From: Escherichia coli
GTDB lineage: Bacteria; Pseudomonadota; Gammaproteobacteria; Enterobacterales; Enterobacteriaceae
Reading direction: 5' to 3' (one strand)
Length of the DNA stretch: 64,000 bases
Assembly (NCBI RefSeq): GCF_045037415.1
Contig: NZ_CP173438.1
Under the pieces are notes generated by a model. The model was not told where the DNA came from, made no database searches, and saw nothing but the letters and a program-made list of their open reading frames with translations. This document shows positions 15,677-16,123 of this stretch, in pieces; within the stretch, counting starts at the first letter, position 1; every line of letters starts with the position of its first letter. Both the position numbers and the translations under genes were made by a program.

Positions 15677-16123
15677 GCTTCACCTCCACAGAGGTCAGAC
15701 GCTAGATGCAAAAAAACGCAGGTGCATTTCTGCATCTGTGAAGGGAGAAGAGAGTTTGGATTGTGTGTGCGCATAAACGTCCCCGTTTAGCGCAGAAGTC
15801 ACCGGAGTTGTTCAGGCTCCGGTGATACAATTATGGCGAATTGATTATTCATAATCAAACAAGATAAGGTCTCAAACTTCATGCAAGCCAAGATTTATTT
15901 CTGACAGAATTATACAAAGAAGCTATTGGTCAGAATCTACTCGGACTGTAAAACATACGCATAACCTTAAGCTCTCACTTTAAGCATTGTTGAAATAATA
16001 GCCGTCAAGTACAACCTTAACCACGACTGGGATATTTCCCTGGCTACCACGAGTTGTACGGCTATTAAACTGCCGTTAAATTTAGTAAGAGAATTTCATC
16101 CGATAAGTCAAGGCATGTAAAAC

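Follow-up and report, generated by a model that had tools for sequence, protein, structure and literature searches.

In phage lambda, the control of the segment that leads from the nin genes to Q is attributed to tR2-tR4 together with N, and at the place just before the ninB-family gene only tR2 is found. This nin-to-Q segment sets the timing with which lambdoid prophages, Shiga-toxin phages included, commit to late gene expression. The boxB hairpins of the nut sites have the loops CUGAAAAAG in lambda and CUGACAAAG in P22. Closer to the locus described here are two database records. The record of phage 82 (X92588; Mahdi et al., 1996) lists a repeat_region at 82-110, a putative -35, a putative -10 and the ribosome-binding site of a small open reading frame, orf33, and the record of phi80 (JX871397) lists an inverted repeat named 'IR4'. 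Both records hold feature notes only ('possible regulator-binding site' and 'IR4'), with no RNA reading, no covariation and no transcript end. The comparison presented here showed that the repeat of phage 82 is hairpin H1 of a conserved RNA leader, read from the minus strand, which opens the nin-to-Q segment in many lambdoid phages. This leader is apparently a structured, RNA-level element without prior description; a literature search on the genes of the locus and on its motif sequences found no account of it.

The analyzed window, a stretch of 64,000 nucleotides, belongs to a lambdoid prophage of E. coli, of the same type as DLP12 and phage 82. Its early-right genes are encoded on the minus strand in the order orf33/ylcH-like, ybcN (15676..15221), ninE, ybcO, rusA, ylcG and Q. 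On the plus strand follows the gene of an esterase (BD-FAE alpha/beta hydrolase, lipoprotein; 16124..17155), so that the spacer 15677-16123 separates two divergent genes. This spacer is AT-rich (GC 36-38%). Homology to DLP12 of K-12 and to phage 82 extends from ybcN up to 15859 and then ends, which marks a mosaic joint. Compared with strain 4/1-1, the prophage sequence is identical except for one IS insertion. The inserted element belongs to the IS66 family (17152-19691; ends GTAAGCG...CGCTTAC) and is flanked by an 8-bp target duplication, CAAAACCC. It lies in the last codons of the esterase gene and alters the C-terminus of the protein from ...NPNANL to ...NP. The esterase gene converges with that of an inverse autotransporter, and a GC-rich hairpin between the two, GAGGGAGGGCTAAGCCCTCCC (about 19711-19733), resembles a bidirectional terminator; the IS element now parts it from the esterase gene. 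In K-12, the strongest genomic SELEX peak of HusR (YnfL) was reported just upstream of rusA, in the ybcO-rusA intergenic region (PMC12844172, 2026). This is a site other than the leader, located downstream of it, with its window equivalent near 14770.

The initial annotation of the spacer had pointed to two palindromes and had considered them as a Rho-dependent or tR2-like terminator of the early-right operon or as a regulator binding site of the cargo gene. The first of them, IR1, was described as a perfect 9-bp inverted repeat with a 9-nt loop and no U-tract, which the sequence bears out on both strands. The arms TCACCGGAG (15799-15807) and CTCCGGTGA (15817-15825) enclose a loop that reads CCUGAACAA on the minus strand, and a T/U run is absent on either strand. 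RNA folding, which had been suggested as a check, yielded a stable GC-rich hairpin (H1; 15799..15825, minus strand) with a stem of 9-10 bp (minus strand: -15.0 kcal/mol, z = -5.7; plus strand: -20.3 kcal/mol). As a bare pattern, this repeat proves nothing, as perfect 9-bp repeats are not rare. A search for such repeats with loops of 3-20 nt gave 22 hits (about 13 loci) in the 64 kb, with a mean of 5.35 in Markov simulations. It is the comparative evidence that carries IR1. Further perfect repeats of at least 9 bp (loops of 3-20 nt) are located at 1508, 10790, 10877, 25113, 26494, 32971, 42287, 52401, 59992, 61200, 63349 and 63677. Perfect repeats of at least this length amount to about twice the simulation expectation in the window, and several of these other repeats are probably terminators.

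For the comparison, an exact 21-mer from farther downstream (the core of hairpin H3) led to at least 120 viral contigs with 104 unique 280-nt variants, from which the anatomy of a leader with four hairpins, H1 to H4, emerged. A covariance model of 16 seed sequences, to which 78 phage copies were aligned, has a single match in the window (15700-15829, minus strand; 87.7 bits, E = 7e-17). In the 78 copies, 96.2% of the cells are paired, compared with 85.2% in shuffles and 27-38% with slid partners, percentages that are inflated by a structural alignment which was itself fitted to the covariance model. Double, that is compensatory, changes are present in 23 of 30 pairs (H1: 11 of 11; H2: 7 of 10; H3: 5 of 9), and none of 500 shuffles reaches this number. 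RNAalifold independently recovers H1, H2 and H3, and single-sequence folding returns H1 as the minimum-free-energy structure for 59 of 60 unique variants. A four-way alignment that includes phi80 illustrates the pattern: the arms of IR1 differ (UCACCGGAG versus UCUGCCAGCGG) and stay complementary, and the loop CCUGAACAA is unchanged. Across the variants, the sequence of the H1 stem varies freely, with the loop UGAACA being 90-100% conserved and the following GACUUCUGCGC likewise. H1 contains about 90 G.U cells; read from the plus strand, these would turn into C.A mismatches, which identifies the minus strand as the functional one.

As the sampling was partly anchored on conserved motifs, copies were collected again via the -10 and the H1 loop as a bias check. 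Of about 86 true elements collected in this way, without recourse to the 21-mer of the H3 core, 76 contained it exactly. In H3 itself, one contig (L141) exhibits a compensatory exchange of CAG...CUG for CCG...CGG. In two others (L137 and L138) UGCA-GAAA-UGCA is replaced by UGCU-UAAC-GGCA, whereby the helix is kept and the encoded peptide changes from QKC to LNG or LIG, and L143 carries a different 7-bp hairpin at this position. A scan of 15500-16300 with Rfam 15 gave two chance matches only (E = 1.3 and 5.4), neither of them on the leader. On sequence evidence, the comparison with other phages shows that IR1 is functional. The conservation that the initial annotation had asked for in related prophages is present, with IR1 covarying in more than 100 phage variants. 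The refuting condition set by the initial annotation, a lack of conservation and of a transcript boundary, fails for IR1, but its being part of a larger leader with a promoter, three more hairpins and a small upstream open reading frame had been missed.

The leader comprises about 185 nt of the minus strand (15858..15673). At its upstream end, a consensus scan found the -35-like hexamer TTGATT (15858..15853), which is separated by 17 bp from the -10-like hexamer CATAAT (15830..15835); both are entered as putative promoter elements in X92588. The promoter scores at least 9 of 12 against the consensus in 92 of 102 unique variants, and 94 of the 102 have the 17-bp spacing. About six variants contain an 11-nt insertion and a poor -35, yet possess an extended -10, TGTTATAAT. 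The conservation of the promoter via two different solutions argues for a real sigma-70-like promoter. In the supplements of the K-12 SMRT-Cappable-seq and Cappable-seq studies, there is no entry for a transcription start at the leader. The -35 is overlapped by a palindrome, TTGATTATGAATAATCAA (TTGAT-N8-ATCAA; 15841..15858, minus strand). TTGATT is kept in 84 and TGAT-N8-10-ATCA in 96 of the 102 variants, and the palindrome TTGAT-N8-ATCAA is retained even where the 11-nt insertion displaces it. To judge from its sequence, this palindrome would be a better candidate for a protein-binding site or operator than IR1. A site for FNR was rejected, as the half-sites TTGAT and ATCAA fit but the spacing is N8 and not N4, and the consensus of neither Fur nor IHF fits the majority sequence. 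The RNA of ylcH was reported to be 2-fold higher in K-12 under microaerobic conditions (PMC8910356).

The hairpins downstream of H1 enclose signals for translation. H2 (15768..15794, minus strand; -14.4 kcal/mol, z = -5.1) carries in its GGGA loop the Shine-Dalgarno sequence of orf33 and holds the AUG (15774..15772) in its 3' arm. The ribosome-binding site of orf33 marked in X92588 is located at H2, 'IR4' of phi80 corresponds to H2, and the 3' arm carries an AUG or GUG of orf33 in the variants. The ylcH-like orf33 (15673..15774, minus strand) has 33 codons, and its stop UGA (15675..15673) overlaps the GUG start of ybcN (15676..15674). Across the phages it has 31-33 codons, and it is intact with the stop-start overlap (TATGA, CGTGA or CATGA) in 101 of 104 variants. 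Among these variants, 76 different peptides are encoded, whose N-terminal sequences fall into three classes separated by frame-preserving indels. The peptide has no match among the Pfam, NCBIfam and PHROG families, and RefSeq annotates at the leader either a 33-aa hypothetical protein or nothing. That the AUG in H2 is a genuine start codon is supported by a viral contig (L140, 2200-2400) in which another, longer open reading frame, fused to promoter, H1 and H2, starts at this AUG. This reading frame encodes a hydrophobic protein, MHYLAKSVTYTFCLSIF....

Inside orf33, a direct reading of the sequence reveals a C-rich, G-free stretch, CACACACAAUCCAAACUCUCUUCUCCC... (15742..15768, minus strand), which is also C-rich and G-poor in all three sequence classes. 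It resembles a putative Rho-loading (rut) site, though a short one (about 30 nt). Also inside orf33 lies H3 (15717..15740, minus strand; -7.3 kcal/mol), which reads CAG-A-UGCA-GAAA-UGCA-C-CUG with a GNRA tetraloop and is followed by seven U (15716..15710) in the variant of the window. This U-run is not conserved and is degenerate in K-12. The core of H4 (15682..15695, minus strand) is an anti-SD/SD hairpin, ACCUC-UGUG-GAGGU, that sequesters the Shine-Dalgarno sequence of ybcN. The downstream Shine-Dalgarno sequence is paired by H4 in 44 of 48 unique variants, and this is achieved by three unrelated sequence designs. With orf33 kept, its stop overlapping the next start and the Shine-Dalgarno sequence sequestered, the signs of a coupled upstream reading frame are all present at the sequence level, and translation of the next gene is likely coupled to that of orf33. 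Two alternative pairings can be drawn, a long-range antiterminator helix UUCUGCG/UGCAGAA and one with an anti-SD upstream of H3, but covariation supports neither and both were rejected.

The leader is widespread. It is present in 4254 of 5426 complete E. coli genomes (about 78%), at 6309 places in total and with up to four copies per genome. K-12 carries a copy in DLP12. It also occurs in phages of Klebsiella and Enterobacter, in phi80, HK639 and HK225. In most copies the gene 3' of the leader is of the NinB family (YbcN-type or Orf-type); in one copy it encodes NinG and in two contigs the Q antiterminator. In the latter two (L010 and L039), the upstream reading frame is coupled directly to the Q gene (Pfam PF03589), with no nin genes between. 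In some phage contigs, two copies of the leader bracket one to three cargo genes (L063, 3275-3402/4517-4644; L045, 10379-10508/12690-12819; L010, 6847-6977/10950-11080). Such paired leaders around cargo suggest that the leader is a recombination or insertion joint for morons at this place. The leader occupies exactly the joint that receives cargo genes (moron or defence), which may explain how such insertions are insulated from the phage circuit.

The second palindrome, IR2, is indeed present upstream of the esterase gene, but it is larger (15996..16067, strand unassigned) than the extent of about 16000..16064 given in the initial annotation. Perfect 10-mers, TAATAGCCGT (15996-16005) and ACGGCTATTA (16058-16067), form its outer arms. 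A 3-nt bulge sets off the inner arms GTACAAC (16009-16015) and GTTGTAC (16053-16059), between which lies a small GGGA/TCCC hairpin. From the end of IR2 to the ATG of the esterase gene (16124) it is 56 nt. Among E. coli genomes, the segment 15860-16123 is confined to the 681 with the esterase, with at least 95% identity and about once per genome, and the homology upstream of the esterase gene begins at about 15880. This cassette, together with about 240 bp upstream, is also present in Escherichia sp. MOD1-EC7003, where it is located beside emrE and in a different context. The homologue from Enterobacter soli (61% amino acid identity) has no alignable upstream region. Also in the upstream region of the cassette, the minus strand contains at 15909-15914 a perfect TATAAT that faces the leader and is without a good -35. 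For the esterase gene itself, consensus scan and inspection gave no convincing plus-strand promoter.

Of the roles proposed earlier for IR2, its relation to the cargo gene stands in so far as it belongs to the esterase cassette, but no test showed a regulator site or a terminator. Read as a terminator on the minus strand, it has an AU-rich base of the outer stem, an interior of 52 nt and the tail UUUCAACAAUG, and it was not picked up by the consensus scan. A repeated or MITE-type element was rejected in view of one copy per genome and the lack of a flanking direct repeat, and no promoter, Rfam match or repeat family was found that accounts for IR2. Most likely, IR2 is a separate RNA-level structure in the upstream region of the esterase cassette, with pairing on the minus strand being slightly favoured by the substitutions. 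In MOD1-EC7003, the left outer arm differs by three substitutions (G to A, G to A and T to C), and pairing is kept only as G.U on the minus strand. The chance of all three favouring this strand is about 1 in 8. Informative substitutions are only four, of which three favour the minus strand and one, in the inner helix, the plus strand. A chance or relic palindrome without function is an unlikely though quite conceivable explanation of IR2. It would fit with the occurrence of IR2 only with the esterase cassette, once per genome and at 95% identity or more, with the pair-breaking G16060T in one E. coli strain and with fold z-scores of only about -2.5 (-2.7 on the plus, -2.5 on the minus strand). 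Against it speak the ten perfect pairs plus seven more, which are unlikely to arise by chance in 260 bp, and the three arm substitutions in MOD1-EC7003 that all keep the G.U pairing on the minus strand.

For IR1, a transcript boundary is available from published data. In K-12, Term-seq detected RNA 3' ends at MG1655 positions 572349 and 572350 on the plus strand, 19 nt before the ATG of ylcH (supplementary files 1 and 3; printed context ...GTCACCGGAGCCTGAACAACTCCGGTGACTTCTG^CGC), which appear in two condition lists, are both classed as 'orphan' and have scores of 1585 and 1859 (Adams et al., 2021, eLife, PMC7815308). In the window the local sequence is identical and the equivalent position is 15792..15793 (minus strand); the distance from the identical H1 to the 3' ends is 5-6 nt. 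The boundary that the initial annotation had proposed to look for is thus found at IR1. Located where lambda has tR2, H1 is an RNA boundary hairpin that is not a canonical terminator and does not look like an operator.

The best explanation overall, which appears somewhat probable, is that of a leader with H1 as its boundary, a loop recognized in trans, closed ribosome-binding sites and a function equivalent to tR2, with IR2 being separate. H1 would mark the transcript boundary where cargo genes meet nin genes. Transcripts that come from upstream and are not antiterminated would end just after H1, either by non-canonical termination or since the hairpin blocks 3' trimming; cleavage in the linker between H1 and H2 might be a further route to the 3' end. 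In transcripts that start at the leader's own promoter, H1 may in addition be the stem-loop at the 5' end. The invariant loop UGAACA suggests that a trans-acting factor recognizes H1. H2 and H4 would hold both ribosome-binding sites closed, and downstream translation would depend on translation of the upstream reading frame. In combination, these layers might keep the expression of nin genes and Q low unless RNA polymerase is antiterminated, as a functional counterpart of lambda tR2. A more far-reaching interpretation can be offered only tentatively: this 'ninB/ylcH leader' might constitute a new class of phage cis-regulatory RNA, in which the UGAACA loop, and perhaps H3, docks a trans-acting factor that gates nin and Q expression from a dedicated promoter and independently of N. 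Candidates for such a factor are the NinB-family protein encoded just downstream, in an autogenous manner, or an antitermination or termination factor.

Rather unlikely is a simpler role of H1 as a merely protective stem-loop at the 5' end of the mRNA from the leader promoter, comparable to the hairpin in the ompA 5' UTR, with the K-12 3' end being a degradation product. It is true that the hairpin begins 2-6 nt after the -10, which places it mostly at the extreme 5' end of an RNA from this promoter, and that the score of the K-12 3' end is low, so that it could be a decay intermediate. However, the pairs formed by nt 5 and 6 after the -10 covary although they would lie upstream of a canonical start site, which suggests that the hairpin matters in transcripts begun upstream of the leader promoter. 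Moreover, mere protection does not need an invariant loop.

The claim that the early-right operon has in H1 a canonical intrinsic terminator of the tR2 type, or a part of a Rho-dependent one, has survived in part only and is improbable as a whole. Its position is that of lambda tR2, the hairpin is stable and GC-rich, and the K-12 3' end is 5-6 nt downstream of the stem. Yet the tail is U-rich in no class, being CUUCUGCG (3 U in 8) in one and GGUUGCGC in another among 77 distinct sequences, and with no U-tract H1 is not a canonical intrinsic terminator. For a contribution of Rho one could point to the C-rich, G-free stretch after H2, but this spans only about 30 nt, and supplementary file 2 of PMC7815308 lists no bicyclomycin-sensitive Rho-termination region near 572.3-572.6 kb of K-12, where expression is low. 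The suggestion of a Rho-dependent terminator at IR1 therefore finds no backing in the K-12 data.

Even less credit is given to the idea that the leader is a small-RNA gene, whose product of about 115 nt (H1, H2, the C-rich linker and H3 with its U-run) would act in trans in lysogens. The succession of a promoter, hairpins and, in the variant of the window, a terminator-like H3 with seven U would agree with this, as would the report of ylcH RNA as separately regulated in K-12. But the U-run after H3 is not conserved, the K-12 Term-seq data (PMC7815308) contain no 3' end after H3, the least structured segment, which would be the seed, is the most variable one, and 101 of 104 variants have kept orf33 together with its coupling to the following gene. 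Least probable of all is a DNA operator for a regulator of the orf33-ybcN promoter, since the location of IR1, about +1 to +30 relative to a promoter-like sequence, and the label 'possible regulator-binding site' in the 1996 record X92588 are outweighed by arms, the would-be half-sites, that change wholly and stay complementary around an invariant centre (the reverse of an operator), by many G.U-type pairs on one strand only, by an RNA 3' end right after IR1 and by the separate palindrome TTGAT-N8-ATCAA over the -35 as the better candidate. Nor is IR1 linked to the cargo gene, as the initial annotation had considered for a regulator site.

Compared with described systems, the leader shares features with several of them. 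With pR'-6S RNA-tR' of lambda it has in common a constitutive-looking promoter, a short structured RNA and a terminator-like hairpin before genes that need antitermination. It differs in that neither a Q-binding element nor a sigma-dependent pause element was recognized in the leader (a -10-like hexamer with A2/T6 is absent from the H1 loop), and it is not known to have an antiterminator. Like the boxB elements of the lambda and P22 nut sites, H1 is a hairpin in a phage early operon with a conserved loop rather than a conserved stem, and its loop CUGAACAA is similar to theirs. A boxB/nut reading of H1 was nevertheless rejected. The loop of 9 nt is not a closed pentaloop, class II is without the U-A closing pair, and there is a promoter upstream and no boxA. 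In addition, the phages that carry the leader, such as phi80 and HK639, differ in their antitermination systems. Leader-peptide attenuators and coupled operons also keep a short reading frame while its peptide varies, with an overlap of stop and start and with the next Shine-Dalgarno sequence locked inside the upstream reading frame. In contrast to the attenuators, no alternative terminator/antiterminator pairing was shown and no sensing codons are evident here, and the start site of orf33 is itself locked as well, by H2.

The closest relative in terms of position is tR2 of lambda. Both immediately precede a ninB-family gene where the nin-to-Q segment begins, and in K-12 an RNA 3' end follows H1. 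Whereas tR2 consists of a hairpin with a U-tract alone, H1 has a conserved loop instead of a U-tract and stands within a leader of promoter, upstream reading frame and multiple hairpins. The repeat_region at 82-110 of phage 82 maps exactly onto this H1. As the leader is present in K-12 and its 3' end is already contained in public Term-seq data, these readings are directly testable by standard genetics. At the tR2 position, most E. coli prophages carry an element far more elaborate than that of lambda, in which four covarying hairpins are combined with a promoter and with an upstream open reading frame coupled to the next gene.
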